Shown in pieces: positions 1,921-41,548 of a stretch of 64,000 bases of DNA (the first letter of the stretch is position 1; the number at the start of each line of letters is the position of its first letter). Both the position numbers and the translations under genes were made by a program. The stretch spans positions 4,403,992-4,467,991 of the forward strand of contig MU053561.1 in NCBI GenBank assembly GCA_013239625.1, given 5' to 3'. The DNA is from Lama guanicoe (taxonomy: Eukaryota). The notes under the pieces are model-generated. The model ran no database searches. It worked only from the letters and a program-made list of their open reading frames with translations, and had not been told where the DNA came from.

Positions 1921-1974
1921 GTAAACTACTATATGAGTGAATTTTATTTTCATATAATTCTGATGCTATATGGG

Positions 1975-3960: not shown

Positions 3961-4539
3961 AGAGTGATCATAGTGATGAGAGGAGAGACTAATGATCCAG
4001 GGAGGGAAGAGAATGAAAAGGAAGACTCCAGAAAACTCGTCCCCATGGGTTCTGGTCTGCTTGTGATTTTTCCCTTCCTAATCACCTGCCTATATAGACT
4101 TTGGACTTGCTTAGCCAGCCTCCACAATCATGTCAACGAACTCCCTGTAATAAATCCCTTAATCTATGAAAAAAGAGAGGAGGTATGCTTGGCCTGGGGA
4201 AATGAGTGAAGACTTCTGGAGTGAGATTTCACTTAAGCTGAGTCTTAGAGAGTTATTAAAAATTAGTAAGGCAAGGCAGGAGTGGAAGCAGTGGTGAGTT
4301 AGTGAAATAGCTCACTAGAAACAAACAAACAAATTTAATTTGTAGCGTTTGATAACGCTGTTGTATATGCTCCCAGCATGGCCAATTTTAAGCTATCAAC
4401 ATGATGCCACAGAAAACTTGGAAAATTGTCACACCCTCATTAGTCTGGGATCAAATTTTTGAGAATCATTGTAGTAAGATGAAAATATCCTCTTGGTTTT
4501 GAAGGAATTCAAAAGACAGTCTTTAACTCATATATCTAT

Positions 4540-5835
4540 GGTACATATCCAAAAGAACTGAAAACAGCTACTCTAATAAATACACATGCCAATACCATTC
4601 AGTGGGAACAGAATACTCTCTTCAATTAATAGTGCTGGAACAACTCGTTATCTACCTGCAAAAGTATGAAGTTAGATCCCTACCGCATACCATACTAAAA
4701 AAATTAGCTCAAAATGGGTCCATAACCTAAATATCAGAGCTAAACCATAAAACTCTTAGGAGGAAACACAGGAGTAAACTGTCATGATCTTGAATTTGGA
4801 AATGGCTTCTTAGATATGACACCAAAAATATGAATAACAAAAGAAAATATAGATAAACTGAACTTCATAAAAGTTAACTTTGTGTATCAAAGAACATTAC
4901 CAACAAGGCGAAAAAAATCTATGGAATGGAGAAAACATTCGAAAATCATATATCTGATGAAGGTCTAGAACCTAAAATATATAAAGAACTCTTATAAATC
5001 AAAAACAAAAAGAAAACAACTCAATTTAAAAATAGACAAAGGACTTGATTAGACATTTCCCAAAAGAAGATATACAAATGGCAAAAAAAAATGCATAAAA
5101 AGATGCTGAACTTCATTAGCCACTATGGAAATGCAAATCAAAACCATAATGAGGTACTACGTCATAACGCCTAGGATAGCTATAACAATTTAAACAACAG
5201 AAAATAAGTGTTGGCAAGTGTGTAGAGGAACTAGGACCCTTGTATATTGCTGATGGGAATGTAAAATGATGCAGTTTGTGGAAATCATTTGGTGATTCCT
5301 CAAAAAGTTAAACATAGAATTACTACATGACCAAGTAGCACATACCCAAAAGAACTGAAAACAGGTACTCTAATAAATACAGGTTCATAGCAGCACTATT
5401 CATTTTAGCCAAAAAATGGAAACAATATAAACATCCATCAATAGATGAATGGATCAACAAATTGTGGTATAAAAATACAATGAAATATTAAACCATAAAA
5501 AGGAATGAAATACTGATGTATGCTACAATGTGAGTGAACCTCAAAAACATTATCAAGTGAACAAAAGTAAACACAAAAGGTCACATTCTGAAATATCCAG
5601 AATAGGTAAGTCCATAGAGACAGAATACATATTGGTGGTTGCCAGGATCTAGGAGTGGGATGAATGGGGAGAAATAGCTTAGTGTATATGGGCTTCCCTT
5701 TTGGGGTGATGAAATGCTCTGGAACTAGATAGAGGTGGTAGTTGTACAACACTGAGTGTACTATACCACTGAAATGTTCACTTTAAAATGGTTAATTTTA
5801 TGTTATATGAATCTCACCTCAATTTCAAAATAAGA
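4540..5835 (+). mobile_element. LINE-1 (L1MB-like) ORF2 end and 3'UTR
   Basis: aaatgcaaatcaaaaccataatgag, catcaatagatgaatggat, ends ttatatgaatctcacctcaatt plus A-rich tail. Confidence 0.85.
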
Positions 5836-8800
5836 AAATCCTGACTCTATAGTTGATGTACATATTAGGCAAACAAAAAGAATGTCTCTTAAAGTTGCAC
5901 TGATTTTTGTTTTCTGTTAAGATCAAGTGATTCCATTTTGTGTTTTGGACCTGTTTCATTGAATTTGAAAAGTAAACTAGATGTGGCTTTCAATTCTAAA
6001 CAAAGTTAAAATAAGGTTATAAGAGAGATGGTTTGGTTGGTTTTTTCATCAAGTGTTTTAAAACATTTTTGAGGTTTTTAATAGTAAAAGGAAATCATAT
6101 TTAGTACAGCTGGATCATTTCTACATAATTGGCTTTTCATTCTTGATCTGGTTTTGAACTTTTTACCCCACTTCAGTAATTAACTATTATCAGCTTCATT
6201 AATGAAACAGAAACCACCTCCTCTAACCATTTATAAATTGCTTGTCAAACAACTTTTAAACAAAGAATAGGATCTGGGCAAAGTAACATCTCTTTAAAAG
6301 CTACTGCAACTAATTATAGGAGTGTTCAAAGTTATTTTGTTGTTGTTTTCCATTTATTATGAAAGAATCCTAAAGACCTACAGCATTTTTCTTGGCAGTC
6401 ATGTGAATTCTTTTATACAAGAGTAATTATTTTAACAATACTTTTCACTGATATGAAAAGCAGAGTTTTCAGCTACTTATTTATGTCTATAAACTATAAG
6501 AATCAGATTCCTATTTAATCAAGCCACCTTTAGAGATATTATTTCCTATTCTACTTAATTTTTAGTTGATTGAGTAAAAAAGAGCATGGGAGACAGTTTA
6601 AGACATACTTCTTAGTTTATGATATGCTTATAGATTGCACAAGGAAAATTATCAGTTTTTGTATCCAAAAACAAAAGATTAGATTTAAATATTCAATTCT
6701 AAAAGGTTGTTCTATTGGAATTCAATGAGAATGCCACAAAGTTTTAAGCGATTTATGGGAAAATTTTGTAATCCTGTAAAAAGTGTGTTCCACTCTTATA
6801 ATCCTTTCTCCTGATTTCATATTTTACGGAGTTGAGAATGTTAGAAAAATAAGGCAAAAAACTAGAATGCTAATTCAAAATATGAGAGATAATGATGAAT
6901 TTCAAGCTTTATATGCATAAATGATGCTAATGGCTGATCACTAGTTGAGCATGTTCTTTGTGCTTCTATTCTAAGTTCACCACTGCACTTTGTTGGCTAC
7001 GGGGGTCAGTCTGTAGCTATGGAGCAGGAAAGGTTCTTAGGGTGATTCAGTCCATGATCTTTTTTCATCACTATTCCATTAGACTCTGGGTCTGTGACTA
7101 CCTTCTTCACTGTTGTGTTTCCAGTGCCCATCACAGGTCCTGGCTCATAATAGATGCTCAATAAGTATTTCTTGATTGACTGACTAAATAAATAAATAAA
7201 TGAAAAATGAATGGCTGCTATGGTAACTAACTGAGCTAACTATCCAGGCAGTAAAAGTAAAGATGTAATAAAGTAATGCCTCTGGCATTCAAGAAAGTCA
7301 AAATACTAATTAAGGACTTCATTATCTTACACTTTCTGTTTTGAATTCAAGACGTATTTATTCTCGTTTTGAAGGAGAAAATCTGAACACCAGTAGTTGA
7401 CACTTTGTTTATGTATCTATTAGTGCTTTCTCTTCCTGGGCTATAATTGTTTTTACTCATATATCTCTAATAAATTAATCATATATACCTTATAAACAGA
7501 GACCATATTTATTTTTATTTCCTTTGTGCTTAATACAGTGATTTGCACATAAGAGCTACTCAACAAATGTTTATTGAACCTAAAGTTGACACTTTCTCTA
7601 TAATATTTACCTCTTCACTTTTTGTTGTTTCTAATATATTAATGTAGTACAGACCTTTCAGAATGCAGAAACTATAGATAATGACAAGGACATTCCTATC
7701 TATTTATAACTTATACTTAATATTTTTTAAAAATCTTACTGATTAGCACTAGTTTATGAAGAAACACCTTCAAAAATATATGGCTTCTAATTAACATTAA
7801 ATAATATTTTACAAAGTTTCTTCAGCTTTTGCAGACTATTACACATTTTAAAAAATCATATTAATAAAATAACCAATGAAGAAATTAAATCTTATAATAA
7901 TCTCAATTTCAAGGGCAAGAAAGGCTTCTAAAGTGTTTACTTACAATTTTCTTATCTAGAGAATTTGTAAAATAATACTGCCAAATATTTTCTCATAATA
8001 CTAGTGAAAATCTGCCGGGAGAAATTATTTCTTTTTCTCCAAAGTGGCAGAGTTATAGAAGCACCAGTTAAGAGGCTTTATTTTGAGAAAAACAAAATAG
8101 CCTAGTTTAAATAGCAGGCGTATCTCCTTTATATGAATTAGAGAAGTAAATTATATCAGAGAGTCACTATTTATGTCACTGACAGTTTTTACCTGCGAAT
8201 TTCACCACTGGTTTTAGACTGTCACATATTTTATATAAATGCACCTTAAAATAGAGAATTAAATCTTCTAAGGCTTCTTTTCATTATACTTCCCCTTTTC
8301 CTTAATCAATATCATGTTTGGCATAATGTATAGAAATGCACAGGATTTGTGCATACGGTTTTTGGCCTTATCCGATTGTTTTTGTTTAATGGGGCATTGA
8401 CAGATCAGCTCAGGCTCTAATTGTAAGGATAAATATTATTCACATTTTTAATGTGGTGTTTATGACTACTTGGCACTTTCCTTTACATTAAAGCTAGAGT
8501 TAGAATGGGTACTTTTAAGATATCTGTGGAGGAGGATAGTTGCTCTTTCTTGTTCTTTAAATCAAGTGACTCTTCTTTAGCAGCTCTTCTGAGTCCTGCC
8601 AGAATGAATTTGTATCATTTTGACAAGATGCAGAAGTGCCCCTAATAGTTACTAAAAGCATTAAAACATTAACATTTAGCAACCTCATTTTTCACTTGGT
8701 ACCCTCATTTAAGTATTTTATCAAGCTGAAGTTAAACACTAAACATTAGAGTGAACAGCTAAATCTATTCTCTTCAGCCTAAAAAGAATACCTATAACAG

Positions 8801-13753: not shown

Positions 13754-14110
13754 TGTTGAGAGACAATTCTCCAAGAGTCTCTCACATTTCTGCACATCTT
13801 GCAACTGATGCACTTACCTCCCTGTATTTATACTTTCTTTTCAAGGATGTTTGAATAGGAAACAACCTTTAAGATAAGATAGTGTCTCCCTCCAGACCAA
13901 AAGGGAGGTGTGCTTACTTTCCTTTATAAAAGATTCATGTTCCTAAGCTCCAGGTTCTCCTACCACAACCCAGCACACGTGTAAGTGCCGTCCTGCCCTC
14001 TTTACATCACTCTGTGGGACTGGGGAACCAACATAGGAGTGCTGATGCTCTCACGACTGCTGTTGCAGAGAGCAATAAACTGCCCTCCATCTCTGACCCA
14101 GGAATTTTGA
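13754..14110 (+). mobile_element. ERV solo LTR (LTR47-like)
   Basis: Starts TGTTGAGAGACAATTCTCC, has TATAAAA near 13925 and AATAAA near 14074 followed by ctctgacccagga; family name from memory. Confidence 0.55.
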
Positions 14111-14631
14111 GCATGATTCCCTTTCATCTTTCTGGTGATTCTTTCCCCATCCTCGGACAGTTTCCTAATATTCTTGTGCTAATCAGTACTTGATTAAAGA
14201 ATTTAGAGGGACATTCTGCAGATCCTGGAACTACGGTGAGGCAAGAGAGATGTCCAGGGCACAAAATTTAAGGAGGCCCTCACTCTCAGGCTGAAGCAAG
14301 CACTAAGAGTGAGTGCCTCTGAAGTCTGCAGTCTGGGCATCTCTCTTCCTGGGCATCTCTCTTCCTTCCCAGCCATGCCCAGACCTCCAGCACACTCTCA
14401 TTCTGTCCCTGCACCGTCTCTCTCTCTCTGTCTTCCTCTCCCAGGCTTCTTTCTCTCCAGTATTCTACACTAAGACCTCTGGGATGTTGTGAAGAGAAAA
14501 TGCACTAATATCTGTAAATGTTTATTACATGCCTAAAACATAGAAAGTGCTCAGTAAATGTTTATTATTGTTAAGCCTATTATTATTAAAAGATTTTTTT
14601 GTGCATTTTGGTGGATACATTTGACTTACAT

Positions 14632-14815
14632 TTTTTTTCTAATTTTTTAATTTCTTTTTTCTTTTCTTTTTTTGGGAGGGGGAGATAATTAGGTTTATTT
14701 ATTTATTTATTTTTATACTTTACTATTATTATTTTTTTAACAAAGGTACTGGGGATTGAACCCAGGACCTCATGCATTCTAAATACATGCTCTATCATGG
14801 AGCTATACCCTCCCC
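14632..14815 (-). mobile_element. tRNA-derived SINE, camelid Vic-1 type
   Basis: Reverse strand reads GGGGAGGGTATAGCTC...GGTCCTGGGTTCAATCCCCAGTACC (A/B boxes), then TAAATAAACCTAATTA.CTCCCC and an A tail. Confidence 0.8.
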
Positions 14816-15780
14816 ACCTGGTTTAAGTTTTGTTGTTACTTTTTTTCTATCTAACAAAGATATTCCATTAAATCAAATGACCAAAGTATCTCTGAAGCAC
14901 TTTTTAAAGGGAAAAAAAATCTAATGACATCTGAAAAATGTTCACATTGTTTAAGAATTACATATTATGATCCCAAACCTTTATTAAAAGCATATATAAT
15001 CTTATAATTGGAAAAGCTGAAACTTTGGTATCAGTCCAATGGAGGAAGCCAACAACATACTTACTACTAACCCATTTGGGAGTAACAAAGCTAAAGTTAT
15101 AACCCTGCCAGTACTCCCCACACATACATATACCACTCATAAGTAGAAAAAAAGAAATAAAGAAATAAAGCAAGCATGCTTACTTAATCCAACTTTCCAA
15201 TTCATTAAAAATTGAAGCCACTGTCTTCTTGGGAATTGTGGTTTATACTGTGTATGAAATTTAAAACTTAATGTTTCACTGACTTTGCCTCCACTTGTGC
15301 TCCCAAGACTCCTACCTTCCAGCAAAATTTACACTCATATTTATGGGTCCTAAAAAAATGCATTACATGTGATAACAGACAGGACCAGTCAAAGGCTATC
15401 TGGAATCCATGTTGTTTTGCCCCTTCTGTCCACTAAAAGTAATAATCTCTACTAGGTGTTTTCTACTGGATGGTTCTGCCTCTATCAAGCACCACTACGA
15501 CCTCAGTTGGGTATCAGTCCATCTATCAGGTACTATGTCCTTGGTCCACTGCCTTCTACTTCAGCTGGGCCTCATTACTGATTCCCAAAGACCTCACTCT
15601 ATTCCATTGCTAGTACTACAGTTTGTCTCTAAGAAGCTGAACTATGCTACAGAGAATTGTAAAATCATGGAGACTGTGCCACCACAAAAGTATAATTTCT
15701 AATTTTATAGTCAGACTCCTAACATGTCTCATTTATCTTTAACCACTAGTACCTCTCCTATGAGAGACTGCAAATCTTCC

Positions 15781-16223
15781 ACGGTAGATTGTGAAAATGG
15801 GCACACATTCCTTCCCTCCCATAAAGAAGTGGAGTCTATTTCTCCACCCCTTGAAGGTGGGTTGGCCACATGATTTGCTTCAGCCAGTGACTCACTGCAG
15901 CATACACGAGTAAGCAGAGATGAAAAAAATACTTGCAAGTCTGGGCTTGTCCCATAGGTACGTGAACAAGCCATGGTTATGTTACTACAGGATGAGAGAC
16001 AGATGACCCCCATCATTCCAGCTGACAACTGGCCTACCACCAGACATGTGAGTGAGTACATCCAGGACCAGCTAGCCCCCTGCCAGCCAATCAGTTCTAA
16101 CCAAAATCAGCTGAGCTGAACCCAGACCAGAAGGACTACCCAGCAGGCTCATGAACAAAGTAAATGATTGTTGTTTTAAGCCACTAAGTTCTGGGGTAGT
16201 TTTTTATGCAGAAATTAATTAAT
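15781..16223 (+). mobile_element. MaLR LTR (MLT1 family)
   Basis: gaagtggagtctatttctccaccccttgaa ... tgttgttttaagccactaagttctggggtagttttttatgca, typical MLT1 termini. Confidence 0.75.
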
Positions 16224-17900
16224 ACCCTTTGATTCACTTCAGTAATTACCTTATTCCAAGCCTTTGCACCATTTAATGACCACCCCCACTACCATTCTCA
16301 GCAGCTGACTTTACCTCTTTTTCCAAAGAGAGACACAGAGGTACTTAACTCCCCACCCTGCCCTAATGCCACACTACAGCATAGTGGTAAAAAGTACTGA
16401 TTCTGAAGCCAGATTCCCAACTCTTATCTTGGCCCTCGAAGGTATAAGCAGTAAAAGACGTAGACAAAATTGCATGTTCCTTCCCTGTTAAAGTAGGAAT
16501 AATGATAATGCCTACCTCATAGGGTTGCTGTGAGAATTATAACTTAAAGCTTTTAGATCATTTCATTGCACATAGTAAAGGTTCTAAAAATATAAGCTAC
16601 TATTATTTTTATTGTGTACTGGCCAGTAATCCAGAGCTTGATTTTTTAACAGCTTTATTCACATACCATATTTATTCATATTCATATATAAAATTAATGC
16701 ATTTAAAGTGTACATTTCAGTGTTTTTTTAGTATATTCAGAGTAGTGCAACCATCACCATAATCTAATTTTAGAATATTTTAATCATCCCAAAACAAAGC
16801 TTGATTTTCAAGACCTGAAATACTAAGGTGGCTCTGAGCCAAATCTTTGAGGAAAGGCCAAGAGTCCAACAGGGAAGACCAAGTATTGATGACAGTCCAA
16901 TGAGCAGGAGCAGAAGTGTAAACAAGAAGTGAAGCCAAGAGTCAGAGTCAGAGAGACACAGGAATGGAGAGGAAATGAGACTGAGTGCTTAGACACAAAC
17001 AGCACTACACTGCCTCCAGCTAACACTATCACGCATGCCAGACTGGCTTGAAGGTATAGCGTTAGGGGAAGCTTCTCACCCCCTACATTCAGACCTACCC
17101 TGTCAAGGCTGGCAAAGCCAGGGCTTGCCCCAGATTTCTGCCTTCTGACATATCCTGATAAGCTTTAGTCAAGGTTCTCTGAGTTACAAGTATAAACTCA
17201 AATGTCCCCAACTTCTCCAGAATTGAGGTGATCACCTTTCTCTTTAATGTCCAGCTAACATAGTCTAAGCCCTCATCCTACGTGACCTCAGCGACTTTTG
17301 TCCACTCCCCAAGTATTTCTAAGATTCCTTGGGAAATGCTTACATGTTCCACAAATATATCCTTATTTCTTGCCATCTCTTACTCCAGACTACTGCCCTG
17401 TGTTTCTCAAAAGATCTCTTCTTACTATCTGAAAATCATTTCAACATCCTGCCAGGGGTATCCCCTCATCACTTTGCCCCAAGTGTAGATATAGGGGCCT
17501 CCCTAAAATCCCTAAGTACAGCTAACCTGAGGCTTTATTGTTTATAAATGTAACTGCTGACTCAAAGATAAAAGGGACTGTAATGTGGGAAAAGATGATT
17601 ATTTAAAACAAAATGTTAGTTATCATTGCCCTAGAATCTGCTGGTAGTACTTTAATCCCAGAGGGTTTCCTACCAGTGATCTTTCTCCTTATCCTTCAGT
17701 TGGCCACAGTGTTGTAGAATGATGGCTCTCCTCCCAAAGTCAAGGGTCACTTTAACATTATCTTTTCCTTCCCAAGGCATGAGCTCTCATTCTTTTTCTC
17801 AGACCCAGAGAAAAGGCTGGCCTCTACTCCAGGGCCACATTTCCTCCTCAAGGATTACTGATGGTAGGAACAAGCGCTGAATTCAAGAAAGATCTCCTAT

Positions 17901-18192
17901 GCTTCCATATCTTGGCAATTATAAATAATGTTGCTATCAATAGTGGGGTGTATGTATATTTTTTGATTAATTCTTATTTTGTGGTTGGCTTTATTCCTTT
18001 GATAACTATGCAAGTTTAAAAAACTAAAGCTCCAAACATTCTTAGAAATGATGAACAATACATATATGTAAAATTTTTTAATGTGCAGTATATTGTGTAT
18101 ATGTACTTACATGCACTGTATTGTATATGTGCAGTCAAATTAGAACAATTCTACCTAATGAAACTGAAAAATGAAAAAAAAAAAAAAAAAAA
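17901..18192 (+). mobile_element. Young LINE-1 insertion with 5' inversion and long poly(A)
   Basis: TSD AAGAAAG[A/G]TCTCCTAT at 17885-17900 and 18193-18208; first 70 bp or so antisense L1 text; about 21-nt poly(A). Confidence 0.7.
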
Positions 18193-18989
18193 AAGAAAGG
18201 TCTCCTATTTCCTGCCATCCAAAGTATGATATGGACCCTGGCTCTGGGAAGCCAATCCATAATTGACCATATAGTTTCCAAAGTCTGACTTATTCAACCT
18301 TGACTAGAACCACATGTGGTTCACTGACTGACACTGACTGAGAGTGTTCTACTCAGACACTGCCAAATCAGACCCAGTCCAGTTCCTCTTCACACACTTT
18401 CTTCCAAGTTATAATGAAAAGAATTTTGAACGTTCATGTTCCTCTTGAAACCATTCTCCCAATCACTTATAAACAAATATTTATACCAAAGATATGAACA
18501 ATCCCAAAGAAAAATAATGCTTATATTCTGTCATAGAGTGGCCTAAGTCTGGAAATATGAAGAAAACAATTAACTGTATGCTGCCAGTTTTATAAAAAAT
18601 GCAATTATGTATAAAAGATGCACATAATTCATACTATTAAATTAAACATTTATCATCTCAAAATGAAGAATATAATTAATTTGGGTTTTTTTCACCTGGT
18701 CAGGACTCTCTCCAAAATGACAAGTATTATTACCCATTACTCAACATCCTCAAGAGTAAAAGGGATTGCAAAAAAACCTGTAGAACAATTATAAGCTTCA
18801 TTACACAATGTAGATACTGTCTACTGTCCTTAAAATGAAATTATTTCCAGCTCACATGATTAGGTCATGTCTAGTTTGATCAGCTGTGATCAGGGGCAGG
18901 ATCATAAGAGCCCACAACCCCTTAAATTCTCATCTAAAATCCAAAAATTTCTGAAATTTTTTTTTAATGCTAAACATTTTACCTTTTAC

Positions 18990-19810
18990 TGTGTATTTTA
19001 TTTTTATTGAAATAACATCGATTTATAACATTATATGAGTTTCATGTGTACATTTTATTTTTACTTCTGTGTATCCTACAATATGCTCATCACCAAAAAT
19101 TTATTTTCCATCCATCACCATACAGTTGATCTTCATTACCCATTTTGTCCTCCCCCACCCTCTTCTTCCCTCTACCACTACTCTGTTCTCTGTATCTACA
19201 TGTTTGTTTTTGTTTGGTTTGTTCATTTGGTTTTGTTTGTTCATTAATTTTCCACATACGAGTGAAACCATATGGTATTTGTCTTTCTCCATCTGACTTA
19301 TTTCACTTGGCATATAACCCTCAAGGATGATCCATATTGTTTCAAATGGCAAGATTTCATCTTTTTATGGCTGAATAGTATTCCATTGTATACATGTACC
19401 ACATCTTCTTTATCCATTCATTCACTGATGGGCACAGGCAACCAAATTAAAAATAGGTAATTTGGACCACACCAATATTAAAAAAATTTTTGTGCTTCAA
19501 AAAGTACCATCAAGAAAGTGAAAAGACAACTACAAAATGAGAGAAAATATTTGCAAATTATATATTTGGTAAGGGTCTTAAATGCAGAATATACAAATAA
19601 TTATTATAATTCAGCAAAAAGATTAATAACCCAACTTTCAAATGATCAAAAAGTTTGTATAGACACTTCTCCAAAGAAGACACACCAATGGCCAATAAGT
19701 ACATGAAAAGATGCTCAGCATCATTAGTCATTTAAAGGGGTGAAATCTATCACACATGAATTATATCTCAATAAAGTTAGTACTAAAAAATAACAAAACA
19801 AAACAAAAAA
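18990..19810. mobile_element. LINE-1 fragments: minus-strand 3' end (about 18990-19435) joined to plus-strand ORF2/3' pieces (19436-19810)
   Basis: ORF 19101-19352(-) resembles L1 ORF2 end (EISQMEKDKYHMVSL); plus strand catcaagaaagtgaaaagacaac and catgaaaagatgctcagcatcattagtcatt. Confidence 0.8.
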
Positions 19811-20174
19811 CCTGACCTGAGTTTTTTTGGTGGCCTAAACCAAGTGAGGTTATATATAGTCTTCTATATCCATAATAAATGAATATTCACATGTTTGTTG
19901 CAGAAATCTGTGTTTAATTATGAGTACTTCCCCAGCCCTTGCCAGGAGTGTTATATAATATATACTACATAGATCTTATTACTTTTCTTAAGTCTTAATT
20001 TTCTGAATCTCAGAGCATACCATGCCTTAAGGTTTTGAATAATGAATTCTGGACTTGTATAATAAAAATATAACTTAAGGAAAATGGTCAATATCAGAAA
20101 AGTTTGAACTAGATAGAGTATACTAAAGCTCTCTAATGCATAAGGCATTGCTTGGAGAAAATTTAAGAATCTAA

Positions 20175-20272
20175 CCCATAGGGTAATTGTGAGGATTAAA
20201 TAATTTAATTACTATAAAGTCCTTAGAACAGTGACAGGCACAGAGTAAGCACTTAATAAATATCAGTATTGC
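20175..20272 (+). mobile_element. MIR SINE 3' part
   Basis: catagggtaattgtgaggattaaat...cttagaacagtgacaggcacagagtaagcacttaataaat matches the MIR core/3' end. Confidence 0.8.
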
Positions 20273-20279
20273 CATCATT

Positions 20280-22400
20280 CTGGCTGAAATGGGAGTTTGG
20301 TTCCAATGACATCTCTTCCGGACCTACCCCTTTCCATCAAACCAGTGTTATGGGATGGTTATGGTGCCATAGAACTAGTATATCATCCACTGTAAACTTC
20401 AGCTTCTCGTGTCAAATAAAGGGGGGCAGGGACAGGACTTAGGCCTCCAGAGGCACAGCAGAGAATAGTAGTAAGAAAAGTCCACAGGGTAGCATAATAA
20501 GAGGTAGAATTCAATAGAGTTGATTACTTCCGTGGCTTTTGAATGGACCTAAAAAGTTTTCCAGATTTCAATAGGAACAGACTTATGAGTATATAGTAAG
20601 AAGAGAATTAGATAGAGAATTCCACTAGCTTGTCTCTCCTATAGGCCAGTGCCTGTTGTGTATATTTAGTGCTTCTCCTTTCATAATGTAGATACCCTGG
20701 AGGGTTGTGGTTCAGATGGTGTGGGGAAGTGTAGGAGAGCAATAATTGCATGGAATTGTGGTTTTAGTAGAAGAGTATATTAAAACATTGCTTGCTAATT
20801 CTGCAATGGTGAGGTAGGTGGGCCAGCAGTGTTGTCAATAGGAGATGTGGTAGGGAGATTCTCTTCCAGAATCTGATTGACATAATCTGTTTGGCAAATG
20901 ATTCTTTAAGTGATTGGCAGGGGACATACAGACACATAGATAAAGGGCTTTGATGCGATTACCAGAGTCATAATAAATCAGTAGGATATTTCTGGAGATA
21001 ACTCTGAAAAACAGTGGAGATGACTACATCAATCAAAAATCTAGAATATAAGCCTTTGGTTAAGGACCATTTCCACTATCAAAATACGGAGGTTGGGGGC
21101 AAACAAAAACAGTCTATTAAACATTCCAACTAGGGCTGAACAGCTATAGAGTGTTCAAGGAAGACACTTTCTCAGGGAGTCTAAGCTGTTTTTGTCAAGC
21201 TTATACACAACTATACATTCACCAGTTCTGGCTACATTTATAACATGAAAGTTAAAACTTGAATAAAATTGCCCATCTCATCTGGTTCAGGCTAAGCATT
21301 CTCATTTTTTTCTTAGTTGTTCTGAGCCAAGGTGGTTAAAATTTATCATCTCAGGGTGCCAGACTCTTTCCAAATAATTCTGAAGATGGCTTACTGTCTT
21401 ATAATTCCCAGTTTCCTGGTTTGCCACAACCAATGCTAGCTTCCTTGTGAAGGCATGATAGTGACTTGTAGAGTAGATCTTTAACATCCTGAGTGATGAA
21501 TCCTGATACCTATATGATATTCCAAATTTGAAAAGATGACTCTAGCATATAATTTTCCCTGCAAAATGAGTACAAATCACACAGGCAACAATAAAACAAG
21601 GCCCATGCAGATGTTCTATAAGCCAACTGACTAGCTAAGCAAAAATCCTACACACTAGTTTGTAGCAGCCAAATTACCATATGTCATGAACTGTCACAAT
21701 CATTTGAGAATATTCAGAGCATGAATGCTAAATCTTCAAAATGCAAGAATCTACCATCATGTGCTTCTCCATACAATGGAAGGGGACCTGTCACATTGTT
21801 GGATGTATGTTTCCCTAATGTAGGGACACAGCGAATCAGCCAGGATCAGGTAAAAGTGGCAAAATTTTTGAATTTTCAGAACTCAGTGCCCACCCATTTA
21901 GGTGGGTCCATGTTACATAATGAGCCATTTACAATCTTATCCATGTTTTGTTGAATATTCAGGAGACTTTGGAGCCAGCGTGGCATTTCACTTTGACTCT
22001 TAACAAAAGGTGGGACTCTATATATACTGGGATTCGTATCCCACTTAGCTCAGTGTTTCTGCTGACAAATAACTCCATAACTTCGTAATGCTTAAAAATA
22101 CTATCTCTGATTTTTTTATATCAGTCAACTGGTCTCTCTTTCTTTTCACTTTACAATTCCAGAAAAGGAAGGAGAACACTGTGGGAGTTATACAGGCCTG
22201 AGGGGAAGTAGAAGAGGAGATTAGGGTAGATTGTGGGGAAAAAAAAATACAGGGAAGACATATATAGATCCTGACCACTTTTCTCTAAACTGAAGTCCCA
22301 GATTAAAGTCCAGAAAAGAAAGATATTTTGTCCTGCTTTTGAGACTCTGTGCAGATGTAAAGTATTCCATGCCCCTATTATTATTTCTTCTAGTTAAATT
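20280..22400 (-). mobile_element. Decayed Ty3/Gypsy (chromovirus, sushi-like) pol: RT - RNase H - integrase - GPF - chromodomain
   Basis: Minus-strand translation across frameshifts: AFTRKL...NYLERVWHPEMINFNH (21302-21487); RMLSLNQMRWAILF/FNFHV (about 21236-21302); QTDYVNQILEENL (20855-20893); WPTYLTIAELASNVLIYSSTKTT (20757-20825); FLGPFK/TEVINSIEFYL (20495-20555); FTVDDIL...LV*WKGVGPEEMSLEP (20286-20396). Order matches Ty3/Gypsy pol. Confidence 0.85.
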
Positions 22401-22504
22401 TGAACTCCTCAGGTCTGTTCTCTCATACAATGCTAATTAAAGAAATTCCAGACCCGAGCCTTTTAAATGCAAGTTTACTTAACTAACATGTACTTGCAAA
22501 AAGC

Positions 22505-22620
22505 AATCTCAGAAAGAGCCAGAGATGCTGCTAAACATCCTACCATTCACAGAATAGCCCCTACAGCAAGGAATTATCTAGTCCAAACAGTCATTAGTGC
22601 AGAGGTTGAGAAACCCTGCT
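22505..22620. mobile_element. MER20-like hAT DNA transposon fragment
   Basis: gccagagatgctgctaaacatcctac...agtgcagaggttgagaaaccctg resembles the MER20 terminus. Confidence 0.7.
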
Positions 22621-22814
22621 TTCACCTCTAAAAATCATCTATATGACAGGGAATATATGGGAACTCACAGTACTTACCCCTCAATTTTGCTGTGAACTTA
22701 AAACTACTCTGAAAAATAAAGTTTATTAATTTAAAAAAATCATCAATATCTCTGAGTGATTGTTTGGTGATAACATTGTATTTGCCATAGTAAGAATGTT
22801 ATAATTATCATTCA

Positions 22815-23648
22815 TGAAAAGCACTGCAGAATTTCCTTTTCAAATCAAAACAGGACCATGGGCTCTTCCTTCTTCTCCCATATGCATGGGGAAAAAAAAA
22901 CTCATGACTTGGCTAGACTTCTTTTTAAACAAAGAGTTTGCTAATCTGTGTCTCATTCTAATTAAGAGGACGACTCCTTGCCAGCTGCTCCCCCACACCA
23001 ACCACTGCTGCTGCAGCCATAGAGAAGAAGGAATGGTAATTACAACATGGAAGACACCCAGAAGTTCCCACAGGCCTCTAAGAAGATAAGAATAGTAGCT
23101 AAGTATTTGACTAGGGAGCTTACCAGAGGAGTTCACTGCAGAATCAAGAGGTACCAAAGTTATCCCATAGCTCAGGACTCTAAGGAGCACTGGCTGAGCC
23201 AGGGACCAAATGGGAGGTACAGCCCTAGGGAGATACTAGTTCTGTAAACCCCTCCCCACCACACCACGTGGTCAGAGAGGACTACCAGGTCCTAAATGAA
23301 CCTGGAGAGGGTAAATTAGACTTGCTGAGAGATGGAGCCAGACCAACTACCCCTGCCACAAGGTTGTCGGTGAGGGAAGGGCACTCTTTGCCTTAACACC
23401 AAATACCCATACTCCATCGTGGATCAGAGTGGCGAGGGGGAAGGAAATCTGAAAGACTGAATTATACGTAAGAATCTGACTTATTTAAAGAAATTACTTA
23501 ACTAGACTCAAGTAAAAGCCAGGTTTTCCCCCCTATCATCTAATGGAGTAGGTATGGGGACTCACAAGAAAATGCAGACTATAGAAAATAAGCTACAGTT
23601 TCTTACACATCTATATAGTAAATGTAAATTTGTGACTCCACTGAACAC
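22815..23648 (+). mobile_element. Old solo LTR, MamGypLTR-like
   Basis: 3' end aaaataagctacagtttcttacacatc...gtaaatttgtgactcc...aca resembles recalled MamGypLTR 3' ends; 5' boundary uncertain. Confidence 0.45.
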
Positions 23649-24143
23649 ATTTTTACATATTGACCAAAATTTGTCAGCATACTTGACAACAATTTGGAGC
23701 CCAAAAGAACAATTGGAGTGAATGAAGAAATATTTTTAAAATAAGCAAATAGCCAGTTCCATTAAAATAAAAGTACAATTACCTACCCTTTGGTCCCACA
23801 TTTACTCCATCACCTTTAATAGGACTTTGGGGCTGCATTTACCTATCTTCCCACTCTGCCCAGTAAGCAGCTTCAGCATCCCATGTCTAAGCCAGCAGGA
23901 GGTACTTTGGATTTCATAACTACAACCCCCCATCTTGTTGTCTCCCCCAACATTTTGATAATACCAAAAATTTCTGTTTTTTGGATTCTCTCTTACTAAT
24001 CTGAATGAGATTAAGCCTTTTGTTTACTTAAAAAAATCCACCGGTCACAGCTTTTGTTTATTTGTTTTTCATCTCCATACGTGAAAAAGAGAATAGTACC
24101 AATGATGTGCTTCTCATTTCATTAAAAAAAAAAACTATATGTG

Positions 24144-24625
24144 TGTATCAGTGTCCTAGGGTTGTCATAAGAAATTACCACTGGGTGGCTTAAAACAACA
24201 GAAACGTAATCTGTCACAATTGTGGAGGGCAGAAGTCTGAAATCAAGGTGTCAGTAGGTCTGACACCCTTTGGAGGCTCTGAGGGAATCCATTCCATCCC
24301 TCTCTCCTAGCTTCTGGTGGCTGTAAGCAATTCTTGGCATTCCTTGGCTTGTAGAAACATCACTCCAATCTCTGCTTCCATCTTCCCATGACCTTCTTCC
24401 CTATGTGTCTCTGTTTGTCTTCTCCTCTTCTGTCACTTTTAAGGACATATGTCATTGGACTTAGGGTTTACCATAACCCAGGGTGATCTCATCTCAAGAT
24501 CCTTTTTGTAATTACAAGTGCAAAGATTCTTTTTCCAAATAAGGTCACATCTACAGGTACTGGGAGTGAGGGCTTGGAAATATCTTTTTTTTTTTTTTGG
24601 AGGGGGACACAATTCAACCCACTAC
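24144..24625 (-). mobile_element. MaLR LTR (MLT1A-D-like)
   Basis: tgtatcagtgtcctagggttg...ctgggtggcttaaaacaacagaaa...gggggacacaattcaacccactaca. Confidence 0.85.
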
Positions 24626-26399
24626 AAAGTATATTTAAACCTTTAGATAATAGAGATGTCAATTTAAATATTATTACCATGGCAATAAATTATTAAGACA
24701 ATCAGTCAAAATGACAGACTTTTTAGATGTTAAAGATTAATTTCATAGGCCACAGCAATAATCTGAATTCAGGGTATCTCAATTAGAATTAACATTTACG
24801 AGGAGAGTTTCATGATACAAGCTACTATCTGCTTTTCTAACTTTCTAGAAGACTAAACATTTCTTCTTATCTGGTTGAGATTTCTTTCACCATAATTATG
24901 AGGGTCTGTGGTTTTTCAAGGCCAACCTAGAAAGCCATTAGTTAGCAGCAACAGGGGAAAAAAAATAGGTCTTAGAACTCAAAACTTACCAACAACAGAG
25001 AAAAGGACAAAGGAGCAAAATAGGGTACTTAATAAATACAGTATGTGACATCTAATGCTTTACATCTATGCTTCCTAACCACAGAGTCTAGGTGTCTATA
25101 AAGCTTTACAATGTAAATTATTGGCAAATTTTTTCAGAGGTATCAAAGGGGTGGCATCAATAAGGTATAGCATAGATGTGTGGACAATGACTCAAGGATG
25201 CTGAGAGGGCCCTCAGGGTTAAGTATAGTTGAGTATCTCTGCCCTTGCCTCTGTTGTGGGCCACTGGGACCCTGTACTCTCACAATTCTAGGCAGGGTTT
25301 CTCAGATTCAGGGACAAGAATAAACCTGCTACCCTGTCTGTGTAATATGGCTACAGCAATGAGTATGGTACTAGAAGAGGTAGCAATAAAATTTCCCAGT
25401 CCTTCCCTCACTAGAGTTCATGTAAGTGTGGCAGGAATTTTGCCCTGTGGTCAGATTTAGATCATCAGATGATCACTGAGATAAGGTATATACTCTGAGA
25501 GAGGCAGAAGTAGAATAGCTGATAGGTCAGTCTAAGAGCTGAGATAAGGTAGGGAGACCCCAAATCACTTCCTGGCCCAAAAAGTAAGAGTGGAATGATA
25601 AGGAAGAAATGGAGTCAAGAAACAGAAGCCAGACAGAAATTAGATCAGAATAGAAATGAGTCAGAACCAGCAAAACAGATCTTGGACAAAATTTGTGAAA
25701 TTTCAGTGACCAACACCTAAGGTGCCTGAGCTTATTTTATTGGTTTGTTGATGGGTGGAATGTGGAAGTATTGAGATGGCTTGAAGATCAGAACTCGCTC
25801 CCACTTCTTCCCCCATCTAGAATCCATATTTTTATCTAGCCTTTTTTATTTTCCTTCCAACTAAGAAGAGTGAAATGTCTCTTATTCTAGTCAAGTCCAG
25901 CAGCTTTGCCTGTGTTCTTAACCTTATGTCTATCATCCCAAACAATAGTCAACAAAAATTTAAGCAGCTACTATGTCCCTTCTCCTGATTCTCCCTTCTG
26001 CAAATGTTCCCTTACTGTCTTGCATTTCTTTCTCCTTAACCTATAAAGCCTATAAACATGCTCAAGCATTGTTCACAAAAACAGGGGGGAAAAAAAACTC
26101 TGCCTTATTTCTGTATCCCCTTTTAATCATTACTAGAATCAAAAGATTAGCCAAGGGTTGGAGTTAACTGCTTGCATATGGCCTAAAAAGAGCAGTACAA
26201 AAGAATTAAGGGTGCTAGAGAGACAACAGTTCAAAGCACCAACCACAAGAGTCCAGTCTGGTCAGGGAAAAAAAATTATACCACAGGGAAAAAGTTTCAT
26301 AGATAGGGAGAATAAGTACACATTCAGAAATAGAAGAGCTGGACGAGGTCATAGACTGTCACAGAAGAAAATTTTGCTAGAACTGGATAGACTAAAACA

Positions 26400-27540
26400 A
26401 AGGTTGCAGTCAAAGAGTTAGACATTAAAGCTTAAAATATCTGATGAGGAACAATTTTTGGTTAATCATTAAGGGTGTGGCCATGGGTGGTCAAATAAAA
26501 TGAATGTCTCCAGAACTGAGGAGGCCAAGGAAGGATAGAACATTAGATGAATTGTCCACATGAACATGAAAGTCACCCAAGAGGAGGGCAAAATATGGAA
26601 TAATCAAAAAGATTGTAAGCCGACTCCTCAAATCTATGAATAAAGGAAAACACCTAAGTAGAAGGTCATTAATTGACAGCAATATGGAGAGACAGAAGAT
26701 TCTTCAGCTGGATGACTCAAATAAAGTGGAGGTTTTACACAAGCAAGTAAGAGTAATTGCTTGACAGTGTCACTGGGGAATTAGAATGACCAGCCTTGTT
26801 CTCAGCCCTAAATTGGGTGGGGCATAGAAGAATAACTACCCACCACTGAAAAGGCACTAAGAAGTTGTGGTGTCCTTGAGGGAAAGCTATTAAAGGAGAT
26901 GACTTGAGGTTGGGAGAAGACTGGTTGGAAGACTGTTGCTTTATCTGGGTGAGAAAGGATGAGAGCCCAGCCTACCCAGTAGCAGTGTGAATACAAAGAA
27001 GGAAAAATGTTTTAAAAATATAAAAGAGATAGATTGCTTTGATAATTCATTACATTTGAAGAATAAGTAGGAAAAATAAAGGATGACTTTCAGAATTCTG
27101 TTTTGGGCAAATGGGTATACGAATGTACTCTTCACTGAAACAAGAAAAGGAGCAGGTTTAGAAGCAAACAAGTTTATACTGTAGAGCACAGGGAAATATA
27201 TTCAATATCTTGTAGTAACCTATGGTGAAAAAGAAAATGAAAACGAATATATGTATGTTCCTATATGACTGAAATATTGTGTTGTACACCAGAAATTGAC
27301 ACAACATTGTAAGCTGACTGTACTTCAATTTTAAAAAAAAGATAATGAGACAGGTTTTAAACCATGTTACGTCTGTGGTTCCTGTAGGTTGTCCCTGTGG
27401 AAACATTCCATCAGCAAGCAAATATAAATATCCTAGGCTCATAAAAGAGATTTGGGATACACAGGTAGATTTGAGAACTACCATCATTGAATTGAAATTA
27501 AAGGCAAGTAAGTGAAAGAGATCACTTAAGGAGTCTTTTT
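26400..27540 (+). mobile_element. LINE-2 fragment with nested younger L1 3' end (about 27165-27340)
   Basis: ORF 26491-26682(-) has L2 endonuclease-like LLGDFHVHVDNSSN; nested L1 tail gtacaccagaaattgacacaacattgtaa...tacttcaattttaaaaaaaa. Confidence 0.65.
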
Positions 27541-28084
27541 GCTTTGTTTTAATCAATGAATGAAATTTCTTTACCTCTGTGTCTCTGCATTCTTTTTTTT
27601 CCTGTTGGTCAATGGTTCTGATTCTTTATTTTTGTCAAACTTTTTCCCCATCTCCCCATCTTGACAGTTATTGAATGTCTCCATGTGCCAGCTGCTGGGA
27701 ATACAAAGGTAAAAAGCCCAGTTCTCCTCCCCATCCCCTTCTCTGAGTTCTCACTACTGCTGTGACACTCTTGCCCCTTTCACCATGTTCCTAATCCTGT
27801 CACTACCTTCAATGATTTCTAAAAGTATGAACTCTTTCCCCTATTACAGTATAAACTCCCTAAGGGTGGCAACCTTGTGTCATTCTCTGCTGTAGTCTCA
27901 GATACTAAACAGTGCCTGATACAAAGAAGGCTCTCCGAAAGTATTTATTAAAGTTATTAATGGAAAAGAACAAAGTTTGACGTACAAGCTTGACAAGGTA
28001 AACTCACAAGCCAATATAACAGCACAAAAGTCATTGCTATTCTGGTTAAATTTGTTTTCAATTAATAATTGAATTAAAATAGAA

Positions 28085-28925
28085 AAAAAATAGGCAAGCA
28101 GAAAATAACCACTCCATCTCACACCTATTACAATGGCTATTTAAAAAACCCGACAGAATAGCAAATGTCTGCAAGAACATGAAGAAACTGGATGTAGAGA
28201 AATTACACACTGCTGGTGAAAATGTAAAATGGTGCAGCCACTGTGGAAAACAGTTTGGTTATTCCTCAAAATTTTTTAAAATGGAATTACCACACACCTC
28301 AGTAATTCCACTTCTGGGTATATACTCAAAAATAAATTTAAAGGAGGAACAAAAACATATTTATACATGTGTTCACTGCAGCATTATTCACAACAGCCCA
28401 AAATGGAAGCAACCCAAGGATCTATCAAAGGATAAATTGATAAACAAAATGTGGAATATATATGTATATGTGGGTGTGTGCATGTGTATGTGTATACATA
28501 TGTGTGTGTGTGTGTGTGTGTGTATAATTCAGCCTAAGAAAGGAAGGAAATTATGTACATGGATGAACCTTGAGGACAGTATGCCAAATGAAATAAGCCA
28601 GTCACAGAAATGACAACTATGATTTATATGATTCCACTTATATGGGGTATCCAAAGTAGTCAAATTCATAGAGACAGAAAGCAGAATAGAGGTTGCCAGG
28701 GGCCGAAGGGGAGGAAGGTAGAAAAGGGAGTTAAAGTTTAATGGGTACAGAGTTACAATTTTGCAAGATTAAAAAAGTTCTAGAGAGAAATGGTGGTGAT
28801 GGTTGCACAATATGAATGCACTTAATACATTAATACTGAACTGTCCTTTAAAAAATGATTAACATTGTAAACTTTGTGTATTTTACCACAATTTTTTTAA
28901 ATTAAAAAAAAATTTTTAAAAAAAA
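28085..28925 (+). mobile_element. LINE-1 (L1MB-like) 3' end with internal (TG)n
   Basis: ORF 28179-28613 resembles L1 ORF2 C-terminus (HTAGENVKWCSHCGKQ...KWKQPK); (TG)n at about 28501-28523. Confidence 0.85.
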
Positions 28926-28979
28926 CATAAAAACAACGATGACAAAGTAACAATCCACATCAGTCAAAACCAGTAAGGA

Positions 28980-29660
28980 AAGGAGAAACTCGGAGCAGCC
29001 CAGCCATAACTCAACTTGACCACCGGGCCATGGGAACAGGAAACCAAGGGCGTGGCAAGGGCAAGACTCTTGGGCTTTCGCAGGGCGAGGCTGCAAGGCA
29101 AGCCGCAGGTTAAAGCGAGTCACTGCCGGCTAGGCTGCCACTGCGCAAGCGCACATCGCAGCTCCCACCGAGGCGCCTTTTAAACGCACCCGGAAATGAC
29201 GTCTGTAACACTGAGCCCGGCTCAGGGAGGAGCTGACTGGTTCGCACAGGTGAGCGGTGCTGCGGCTCTGGTCCTGCGGCTGCAATGAGCTGCACCATCG
29301 AGAAGATTCTAACAGACGCTAAGACGCTGCTGGAGAGGCTGCGGGAGCACGATGCGGCCGCCGAGTCGCTGGTGGATCAGTCGGCGGCGCTGCACCGAAG
29401 GGTGGCCGCTATGCGGGAGGCGGGGACAGCGCTTCCGGACCAGGTCAGGCAGAGGGTAGGGGCCCGTGCCCTCAGGTTCTGGGCACTTGACGGGTGGAGG
29501 GTGAGATAAAGTGGGAACTCGGCCCGGAATTTTTCCTTGCTCTTAGAGGGAGGCGGTGAGACCTTTCAGCGGGGTCGGGGCTGAGAAAGCTTCCCTGGAG
29601 CTCTGCCTCCTACCTCTTCAGTTGCACCTGCGGCTGTTTTGTTTACGGCGCGATTAGTCT
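28980..29660 (+). promoter_or_regulatory. SIKE1: SIKE1 CpG-island promoter with NRF1-like site (29142-29153) and ETS/CRE overlap (29190-29203)
   Basis: CpG-rich stretch spanning exon 1; TGCGCAAGCGCA; CCGGAAATGACGTC. Confidence 0.75.
29285..29443 (+). CDS. SIKE1: SIKE1 exon 1 coding part (alternative donor extends to 29455, adding VRQR)
   Basis: ATG at 29285; donors CAG|GTCAGG and AGG|GTAGGG. Confidence 0.95.
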
Positions 29661-32600
29661 GTCTCTGTTTGTCCAGTATCAAGAGGATGCATCCGATATA
29701 AAGGACATGTCCAAATACAAACCTCACATTCTGCTGTCCCAAGAGAATACACAGATTAGAGACTTGCAGCAGGAAAACAGAGGTTAGTCAGGCCTTTTTG
29801 TGTAGTTATGATTTTCTACTATCCAGTAATATTTCAGAAGTTCTTACAAACTGTTCACAAAAGCGCACATGCTATATGTTATTTCCAGGTCAGTACTTTT
29901 AACAGGAACGTTATCTTGTGCTGGCCCAGTAAATAACAGTTTGTTACATTACCCTTTTGAAGGTCATCTGACTGGTTTTGTATAGGCAGCTTATCAAAGA
30001 GGTGCTTAGTAGAGTTCAATTACTGCATGACTTATCTAGGTGTCTCCAGATGGAGGCTTGCATAACAAAAGAATTAATGTCTTTCAGGGCTTAAATTCTA
30101 GTGTTTAAATATTAACTGAAATAAACATTAAAACTAAGATTGAAGGTTTTTTAATGTTCTTGTACAGGGTGGAAGAGCTAAGTTTTATTATCAGGTGTAT
30201 TTTCTTGGGCTTGATGAATACATTATTATTGACAGCGTGAATAGTTACTTGTATATGGGTTTACAGAGGGCTTTCACGTATATCATCCCATTATATTCCT
30301 ATGTCTTCATTTTGGTGTAGATAAGCCAGGTATTTATTATGACAAGGCAGATGAGAAATGGGCTCAGAAAAGTTAAATGATTTGCTGAAGGGTAGTAAGA
30401 CCGTAACTCAGAGAACTGAACTTAAATTCATGTCTTCTGATGCCACATCCCATGTTATTTCTACCAGACTATACTGCCTCTGCCTAGAAAGTTATTTTTC
30501 ACATAGCCCGTAACTATAAAGTTTTGTGGATTTACAACTTTGGATTCATAATATCTCATGGAGTGTCACGAAGTTCCAGTTGTTTACATTTGGATTTCGG
30601 AGCTCTCTCTCAGATATCACTGCCAAGTTATTTTATTTTTTTGATAGAGCTATGGGTTTCCTTGGAGGAACACCAGGATGCTTTGGAACTCATCATGAGC
30701 AAATACCGGAAACAGATGTTACAATTAATGGTTGCTAAAAAAGCAGTGGATGCTGAACCAGTCTTGAAAGCCCACCAGTCTCACTCTGCAGTAAGAATCT
30801 TTAATGAATAACTTCGAAATGAACTGAATTAAAATCTTGAAATTGTTTTAGATTCTGTGCATGCTTTTGAAGAAAAGTCAGCTTGTTTTCCTTTCATGTT
30901 TATCACATTTGCTGTTGGTTTTTATATAGCTTTGTGAAAATAGGAATAGAAAGAAGTGGGTAAGGGACTTCTTAGGGCTTTTTGTTTGAGTAAGTCTGAA
31001 GTTCCTCTCTCACCAAGATCTCTTTTCAAGATGTTAATGAATACTTAGTTCTTCCACCAAACAGCATGCCAATTAGTGTTTAAGGTACAGTAAATACTTG
31101 GGTGATTATTATCATACATTTCACTAAATTGTAAGCTCCTTGGTTGTAAAGAGCATGAATTCATCTTTAATCCCTAACATAGTACCTAGTACATAGCAGG
31201 CTGTCTCTAACCTTTATTAAACTGAACTACATAGCATCATACTGTGTTGTTAGGAGAGAGAGGTATAGTTAAAAAAAAAATACATGACATAGTTTCTAAG
31301 TTTTGGTTGCTTATGATTTAATTTGGGAGACCCAGTAATTGTTCTTAAGTTTGTAGAGTGCTTCACAGTTGTCATTGTGCATTTACATGTACTATATCAT
31401 TTAATCCTGGATTAATAGATTGACACCTCACTATTTGCTACAGTAGAACTTATGAAAGATAAGTTTCATTTTAGCTTCCATTGAAAACATTTTACTGACT
31501 TTAACTAAAGTCATAGGGTACAGGATATTTCAAATATGTGAATGGCTTTCATCTGGATGAGAAACTTTATTATCTGTAGTCTGGAGGAGAAAATTTGAAC
31601 CTTGAAGGAGACAGTTTAGCTCATGTGAGAAACTTGCTAAGAGATATGTCCAAAGATTGAATAAGGTACCTTAGAATGTGGTAAGCTTCCTACCAATGAA
31701 AGTATTCAAATTTAAATTCAACTGCCATTTAGATATTGTCTGGGTGAAAACCAGGAATCCTAACTGCTAGACCATGTTGGGGAGGACTAGAGATACTATC
31801 CAACATCCAATGGGTGGCTATATTTTTTGAAAACAAATTACCCATGAATATCACAAGATAACTTTATTATGGCTTTACATCTGAGGACTTAGATTACAGT
31901 GAAACTCCTGTGTAACCTCGGTAGCATAAACAAAATGAACTTATAACATCGTAATGCACATGTTCTCATGAACTTCCTATCTGTAAAAAAAAAAAAAAAC
32001 TTTTCACCTATCTTCACAGGAAATTGAGAGTCAGATTGACAGAATCTGTGAAATGGGAGAAGTGATGAGGAAAGCTGTTCAGATGGATGATGACCAGTTT
32101 TGTAAGATTCAAGAAAAACTAGCTCAGTTAGAGGTAAGATTGTTTCTATTTTAGGTTCACAATATCTTAGGAAGTTTTCATAGAGTCTGAAAGGTACGCC
32201 ATTGCTATCCTATCACTGCAATATATTGATGTTTTCTGTGTGCTCTAATTTAAAATTAAAACACATCCTCCATGCCCTTTTCAAGAAAGGAAATGTAATC
32301 AGCAGCAAACAGTGAAAATGTGAACTATGTATTGGCTAGAAATTGAGGTATTATATCAAGAGGGTAGAGAGGGTGGAAGGGACAGATTACATGTGAGCTA
32401 AAATCCTCATCTGCCATAAAAGAAACTCAAATAGATAATGTCTAAACTTGATGATCAGGAAATAGCAGTGCAGGGCACATTATTTAGAATTATGGAAATA
32501 CCAAAAGAAATAGATAAAAATATTAAAAGTGGTTGCCTTTAGGAAACAAAGCCAAGAGACTGCTAATTTATAAACCTTACAGTCTTGATTTTTTAAAAGC

Positions 32601-41355: not shown

Positions 41356-41548
41356 TTTTTTTTAAAGTCATTCCTTTTTTTTTCTTTACATTTTCTAGGT
41401 GACTTTATTTATTTAGGGTTTTTCTGGGGGGGGGTTAGGTTTATTTATCTATTTATTTATTTTTGGAGGCAGTACTGGGGCTTGAACCGAGGACCTTGTG
41501 CATGCTAAGCACACGCTCTACCAATTGAGCTATACTCTCCCTCCTTGG
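41356..41548 (-). mobile_element. tRNA-derived SINE, camelid Vic-1 type
   Basis: Reverse strand GGGAGAGTATAGCTCAATTGGTAGAGCGTGTGCTTAGCATGCACAAGGTCCTCGGTTCAAGCCCCAGTAC; perfect TSD AAGTAATTATTCTTT at 41341-41355 and 41549-41563. Confidence 0.85.

Follow-up and report, generated by a model that had tools for sequence, protein, structure and literature searches.

A decayed Ty3/Gypsy chromovirus pol relic, very probably, upstream of SIKE1 in a mammalian genome

Detection of the relic

The minus strand between positions 21,450 and 20,280 of the window (the whole 64,000-nucleotide stretch of DNA analysed here) very probably carries a relic of a dead Ty3/Gypsy chromovirus pol gene, approximately 1.2 kb in length. 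The sequence was scored with a purpose-written local aligner, built on a neutral-decay model of codons and tolerant of frame breaks, against a frameshift-aware main profile of 116 intact Gypsy Pols. A chain at 21,380–20,280 on the minus strand reached 88.7 bits, against a mean of 19.8 ± 2.2 bits and a maximum of 29.9 bits for 1,000 dinucleotide shuffles. This bears out the central claim of the initial annotation, namely a non-domesticated, internally deleted chromovirus pol running from RNase H to a chromodomain; all 15 peptide strings quoted in its favor are present across the three minus-strand frames in the order given there. For control tiles, the top score was 27.8 bits among 100 reversed or complemented ones and, in a set of 126 real tiles, 25.8 bits among those outside the locus. 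A Gumbel extrapolation gives a genome-wide expectation of ~1e-12 for the chain, to be read as an order of magnitude, with both profile and settings tuned on this locus.

The reference proteins were collected using the RTL1 open reading frame (ORF) of this genome (L019), which recovered 150 relatives, and a snake element among those, which recovered ~115 more. A smaller profile of 23 proteins ranked the locus first among 82 tiles (40 bits versus a median of 19). An early scheme that scored against a genomic background ranked CpG islands at the top and was abandoned for this reason; every score quoted here comes from a composition-neutral scheme.

The signal was also visible with single proteins. 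A tblastn search of the 150 Pols against the whole window placed its top matches on 20,757–20,893 (E 0.004), and five of the nine matches with E <0.05 fell within the kilobase holding this segment. The best of 253 single proteins, P0198 of Xenopus tropicalis, which carries RVT_1, RT_RNaseH, H2C2, rve, SH3_Tf2-1, and Chromo domains, aligned continuously over 20,949–20,283 with 52 bits and 66 identical codons out of 216. Searches of other kinds were silent: Pfam recognized no Gypsy domain in the six whole frames or in 12 sub-pieces with stops written as X, phmmer against the PDB returned a single unrelated match (E 1.2), a word-indexed homologue search yielded 590 candidates with none at E 10, and tblastn with the RTL1 and PEG10 of this genome missed the locus. 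The collinear homology anticipated by the initial annotation was significant with the frameshift-aware Pol profile and went undetected by the Pfam models. DNA searches of the same genome recovered no second copy of the relic, a result that does not establish rarity.

Domain content and missing parts

The recognizable blocks follow the correct pol order on the minus strand, RNase H, integrase C-terminal half, GPY/F, and chromodomain; their coordinates are collected in Table 1 together with those of other relics found in this genome.

Table 1. Coordinates of the relic's segments in the window and of other Gypsy-type relics elsewhere in the genome.
Feature	Location	Strand	Evidence
Stretch without a detected domain; RT-like words plausibly ordered, all at chance level	21451..22400	-	no second copy in genome search
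RNase H remnant, C-terminal two thirds, 2–3 frame breaks	21224..21450	-	35.9 bits, 0/300 shuffles
~270 nt in place of ~245 reference residues (linker, H2C2 zinc finger, integrase core N-half)	20953..21223	-	flanking anchors
Integrase core, C-terminal half	20757..20952	-	56.7 bits, 0/300 shuffles
Helical linker after integrase core, ~22 codons short	20627..20756	-	position inside P0198 alignment
GPY/F (Tf2-type SH3-like) segment	20453..20626	-	end-to-end 3/400 shuffles; local 30/500
Chromodomain remnant, 2 stops	20280..20430	-	33.6 bits, 0/300 shuffles
Old multi-copy interspersed repeat piece, abutting the chromodomain end	20162..20270	-	73–90% identity to 39 other places (40 of 45 candidates scored)
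Integrase core relic	L058 1317-2065	-	profile score vs shuffles
Integrase C-half to chromodomain relic	L059 1504-2147	+	profile score vs shuffles
GPY/F segment relic	L054 1507-1711	-	profile score vs shuffles
Chromodomain relic	L061 1423-2224	+	profile score vs shuffles
Broken RNase H remnant, non-chromovirus Gypsy look	L065 1472-1679	+	
Broken RNase H remnant, non-chromovirus Gypsy look	L066 1423-1674	+	
Broken RNase H remnant, non-chromovirus Gypsy look	L067 2281-2458	-	
Broken RNase H remnant, non-chromovirus Gypsy look	L071 2104-2360	-	

The RNase H block held up in an end-to-end alignment (34.9 bits, 0/400 shuffles as high) and in pairwise comparison with six intact Pols (29–36 bits, 0/200 shuffles for each). 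Between it and the integrase C-terminal half, a net ~460 nt has been lost. The chromodomain named in the initial annotation proved sound, and its integrase held in the C-terminal half; the motifs quoted for the N-terminal half were equalled by 77 of 500 and 38 of 400 shuffles. The GPY/F assignment stood when aligned end to end and was weaker in local alignment, and the segment lies within the continuous alignment to P0198.

Upstream of the RNase H block, the reverse transcriptase (RT) traces at 21,450–22,400 found no support under testing, and with them went the outer boundary of 22,400, leaving 20,280–21,450 as the supported span. In the block test the traces scored 14.8 bits, with 294 of 300 shuffles as high; further tests gave 225/300 and 90/300, then 84/400, 227/400, and 226/400, and finally 48/200. 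Chaining the traces to RNase H brought no gain (214–400 of 400 shuffles as high). RT, thumb, H2C2, and the integrase N-terminal half were tried in local and end-to-end modes, in narrowed intervals, as far upstream as 29,200, and in a chain with RNase H, and none rose above shuffles in any mode, RT having undergone nine tests. Since these parts went undetected, only a portion of pol vouches for the relic. A whole RT is absent, because left-out references decayed by 0.3–0.45 substitutions per site still scored 82–134 bits in this domain, with none of 40 falling to 20 bits or less at either level; shreds of RT may remain. Intact domains between RNase H and the integrase C-terminal half would score 41–59 bits at the decay of the relic. 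The loss of the zinc finger and of the core N-terminal half from detection also means that the usefulness of this copy for reconstructing an ancestral integrase had been overstated.

A gag-protease profile of 45 proteins, which gave 282–346 bits on PEG10, RTL1, and another SIRH locus, gave 15–17 bits on six minus-strand tiles covering 19,501–30,000, where the median level is 17; gag and protease were lost or never retained. No long direct repeat that could represent a pair of long terminal repeats (LTRs) was present in 14,000–29,500, and no purine run of at least 11, as expected of a polypurine tract, within 1.1 kb downstream. For LTRs, polypurine tract, and target-site duplication alike, erasure is expected at the age of the relic.

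The repeat piece abutting the chromodomain end is presumably MIR-like, and the relic could not be traced past it. A possible resumption of the chromodomain tail beyond it was not significant (18 of 400 shuffles and 77 of 1,278 tiles as high), and the repeat therefore provides no firm relative date.

Genomic setting

The assembly searched is mammalian and 2.05 Gb in size. The neighboring gene named in the initial annotation was confirmed as SIKE1 by Pfam SIKE matches at 29,237 and 30,488; it starts at ~29,280 on the plus strand of the window, ~7.8 kb from the relic, and is followed by a cold-shock-domain gene that we take to be CSDE1. On the other side, a gene for an FXR-type nuclear receptor, presumably NR1H5/FXR-beta, has zf-C4 exons on the minus strand, ~11.5 kb ahead of the start of the window and ~32 kb from the relic. 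The relic thus sits between SIKE1 and the FXR-type gene, in CpG-depleted DNA with an observed/expected ratio of 0.11, like bulk DNA. The relic stretch is present in 20 sequencing runs, which come from 11 studies and carry several organism labels, and it is therefore not an assembly artefact.

Several minor features of the surroundings were recorded. Two zf-C4 exons of the receptor gene, at ~6,600–6,780 and 8,420–8,540 of locus L021 (minus strand), are open where read, and the gene is oriented away from SIKE1, so that its 5' region may fall within the opening part of the window. Rfam tRNA matches of 43–46 bits at 14741–14812 and 41467–41539, both on the minus strand, are probably heads of a tRNA-derived SINE. 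A slightly GC-richer stretch of ~1 kb upstream of the relic, at 22760–23800, showed no gag or RT signal, and the genome search gave no second copy of it.

Decay, age, and likely history

The relic contains 18, 21, and 22 stops in its three frames, with a longest open run of 64 codons, and the chain crosses 11 frame breaks spread throughout its length; on these counts it is non-coding. The ORF expected of a domesticated SIRH/RTL gene is absent. Judged by its sequence, the relic yields no protein and is most likely without function.

Block scores equalled those of left-out references decayed by 0.3–0.45 substitutions per site, under a model that omits CpG decay. In 186 confident codons, three stops were observed versus ~6 expected at 0.3, a shortfall that may reflect alignment bias or a decay below the estimate. 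Slow placental lineages have accumulated ~0.15–0.25 substitutions per site since their common ancestor, and the larger value of the relic would thus put the insertion before the placental radiation. Taken together, decay and lineage rates suggest an insertion older than that radiation and far younger than the Paleozoic, since a neutral copy of Paleozoic age should be unreadable.

The domain order suggests that an active element whose pol encoded RT, RNase H, integrase, and chromodomain would have inserted between SIKE1 and the FXR-type gene. Such an ancestor, a single insertion of a vertebrate chromovirus, would have copied itself by means of its RT, RNase H, and integrase, and the chromodomains of chromoviruses presumably direct integration through chromatin marks. 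Gag, most or all of RT, the N-terminal part of integrase, and the LTRs, none of which leaves a signal, would then have been removed by deletion or decay. The remainder would have drifted, presumably neutrally, to an estimated ~0.3–0.45 substitutions per site, and an old SINE appears to have landed at the 3' end of the relic.

Phylogenetic placement

In trees built from 181 residues, with a long branch and mostly chromovirus references, the relic always grouped with the vertebrate references, with a support of 96–97. Its placement relative to RTL1, for which the initial annotation had proposed a tree, depended on the taxa included: with RTL1 present the two joined at a support of 93 (LG+G4) or 80 (mixture model), a grouping that carries a long-branch warning, and with RTL1 removed the relic moved to the Xenopus clade. 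RTL1 without the relic left the vertebrate group. The RNase H block alone joined RTL1 at 0.85, against 1 of 56 decayed controls that joined it; in pairwise comparison, RTL1 matched this block with 18–22 bits versus 29–36 bits for intact elements, and no match between the relic and RTL1 was found at the DNA level. Most of 22 decayed full-length controls were misplaced in trees. A FastTree topology that placed RTL1 with every mammalian relic (0.68) was discarded as an effect of long-branch attraction. Kinship between the relic and RTL1 is thus a hint only, and probably not a true relationship.

The description "sushi-like" was too strong in its narrow sense. The best match is a Xenopus element, and in none of the trees did the relic enter the fish clade of Hemibagrus and Prochilodus, sushi-ichi itself being absent from the references; fish proteins do give a good match to the RNase H block (34 bits).

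Alternative explanations

Chance assembly of motifs drawn from three frames has in its favor that no standard search detects the relic, and for the RT words it does hold. Over 20,280–21,450 it is refuted by three separately significant blocks that stand in the correct order and join into the 88.7-bit chain, and we regard it as having a practically negligible probability. Very unlikely too, and already largely refuted, is a decayed endogenous retrovirus pol that came by chance to lie beside a fragment of a host chromodomain retrocopy. Retrovirus-type loci, which we take to be such from their motifs, do score on the integrase (up to 63 bits) and RNase H (up to 41 bits) of the profile, so that these scores alone are no proof of Gypsy origin, and host chromodomain ORFs match the chromodomain block of the relic at 27–31 bits. 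However, the ORFs of 27 retrovirus-type loci aligned to the relic with only 15–24 bits (one with 28), close to the 17–25 bits of shuffles, while Gypsy Pols reached 52; none of 28 retrovirus-type loci of this genome had a chromodomain score above 17; and integrase, GPY/F, and chromodomain align continuously to P0198 with the spacing of a single protein.

The remaining alternative accepts the same origin and differs on fate: the copy would have been kept as a regulatory element, an enhancer or a non-coding exon, of SIKE1 or of the divergently oriented FXR-type gene, in which case its decay may greatly understate its age. Its position ~7.8 kb from the start of SIKE1 and on the same strand as the zf-C4 exons ~32 kb away is compatible with such a role, and constrained ancient Gypsy fossils are reported (PMC9004415). 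Two RNA-labelled runs contain 8% and 16% of the words of the relic, shares too small to count as evidence. Against this, the CpG ratio resembles that of bulk DNA, the breaks run throughout, and the decay fits a plain neutral simulation; we consider retention for regulation improbable and prefer a presumably neutrally decayed chromovirus pol.

Comparison with known elements

Intact vertebrate chromoviruses (P0198 of X. tropicalis, P0158 of Podarcis, P0160 and P0164 of Anolis, and P0170 of Gekko) share the RNase H/integrase/GPY/F/chromodomain order of the relic and its clade in every tree, and 64 of 182 confident residues are identical between the relic and P0198. In contrast to them, the relic is mammalian, non-coding, and without detectable gag, RT, H2C2, integrase N-terminal half, or LTRs. 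RTL1, whose RNase H block groups with the relic in some trees, is an open, selected gene of gag-PR-RT-RNase H without integrase or chromodomain, whereas the relic is dead and represents the complementary 3' part. The SIRH/RTL genes including RTL1/PEG11 have a chromovirus origin (PMC3670739), and the proxy ancestor of RTL1 is the only proxy with a chromodomain (PMC11011659).

Mammalian Gypsy fossils are known as a class, which the relic illustrates well without adding a new kind. MamGypsy2-I is presumably one mammalian Gypsy internal relic family. PMC3670739 describes only "rare, highly fragmented" Metaviridae remains as persisting in mammals, and PMC5753468 lists MamGyp-int and X1_LR–X4_LR of Repbase as Gypsy internal relics in human. 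Frith (2022) reported 83 pre-amniote Gypsy fossils in human from a frameshift-aware search, 99.7% of the human fossils being already in RepeatMasker, so that prior annotation of an orthologue of the relic is quite possible (PMC9004415). These fossils and X1–X4_LR are, like the relic, non-coding mammalian fragments of Gypsy Pol (PMC9004415, PMC5753468). The table rows of PMC9004415 used for comparison span 159–328 nt and are conserved to reptiles or amphibians, whereas the relic is 1.2 kb long, multi-domain, and apparently neutral in its decay. A search of the supplement of PMC9004415 for the locus found no match, and the literature search found no paper on the locus of the relic upstream of SIKE1.

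The possibility raised initially, that the relic is already covered by MamGyp-int, is probably misplaced, going by published descriptions. This mammalian Gypsy internal relic family is tied to PNMA2 and the PNMA lineage (PMC9934673), whose proxy is described without a chromodomain in PMC11011659, a survey of capsids and not of pol relics; lineage and lack of a chromodomain would set the family apart from the relic.

PEG10 and RTL1 are essential placental genes derived from chromoviruses that are now extinct in mammals, and a relic that retains several domains and seems to have decayed neutrally can serve as a dated marker of their lineage; its presence or absence at orthologous mammalian sites would bracket the last chromovirus insertions. 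The importance of this copy is modest, such fossils being catalogued in bulk and the copy too decayed for firm placement. A more far-reaching and rather unlikely reading is that the relic and the four other chromovirus-type relics described below represent an uncatalogued chromovirus lineage, sister to the source of RTL1, that was still producing insertions in early mammals around the period of RTL1 capture. Were it true, this would be the only place where the lost integrase and chromodomain of RTL1 are still readable, the timing could be tested across placental and marsupial genomes, and the extinction of chromoviruses in the mammal line would be later than in the end-Permian scenario set out in PMC3670739.

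Related loci in the same genome

A shallow search for the integrase-chromodomain region listed 18 places, of which eight non-host ones were examined: four are chromovirus-type relics (51–91 bits against shuffle maxima of 25–28) and four look retroviral. The initial annotation had thus overstated the rarity of such copies. DNA similarity to the window relic is faint, in register for L058 (E 0.002–0.003) and at E 0.2–1 for the others. L018 was not counted as a relic (26 bits versus a shuffle maximum of 25), and L060, L062–L064, L068–L070, and L051 look retroviral and were left out of the count.

A search for RNase H listed 149 places; among seven that were fetched, four look like other Gypsy lineages. 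Two of these, L065 and L066, share a contig, on which 48 kb separates them, and match at 66% identity across 209 nt. Neither search recovered the window copy itself, and more relics therefore surely exist; among those examined, only the window copy has RNase H, integrase, and chromodomain all above the shuffle level.

RTL-type loci were also encountered. L019 contains, at 303–4694, an RTL1-like ORF of 1,463 uninterrupted codons with a long, acidic, Asp-rich repeat at its end. Five DUF4939 matches with identical scores (L003–L007), which we take to be RTL8-like, lie at G000:C9319:99211-132410 and C53092:745-1080; four of them fall within 33 kb in alternating orientation, forming an expanded and possibly homogenised cluster.
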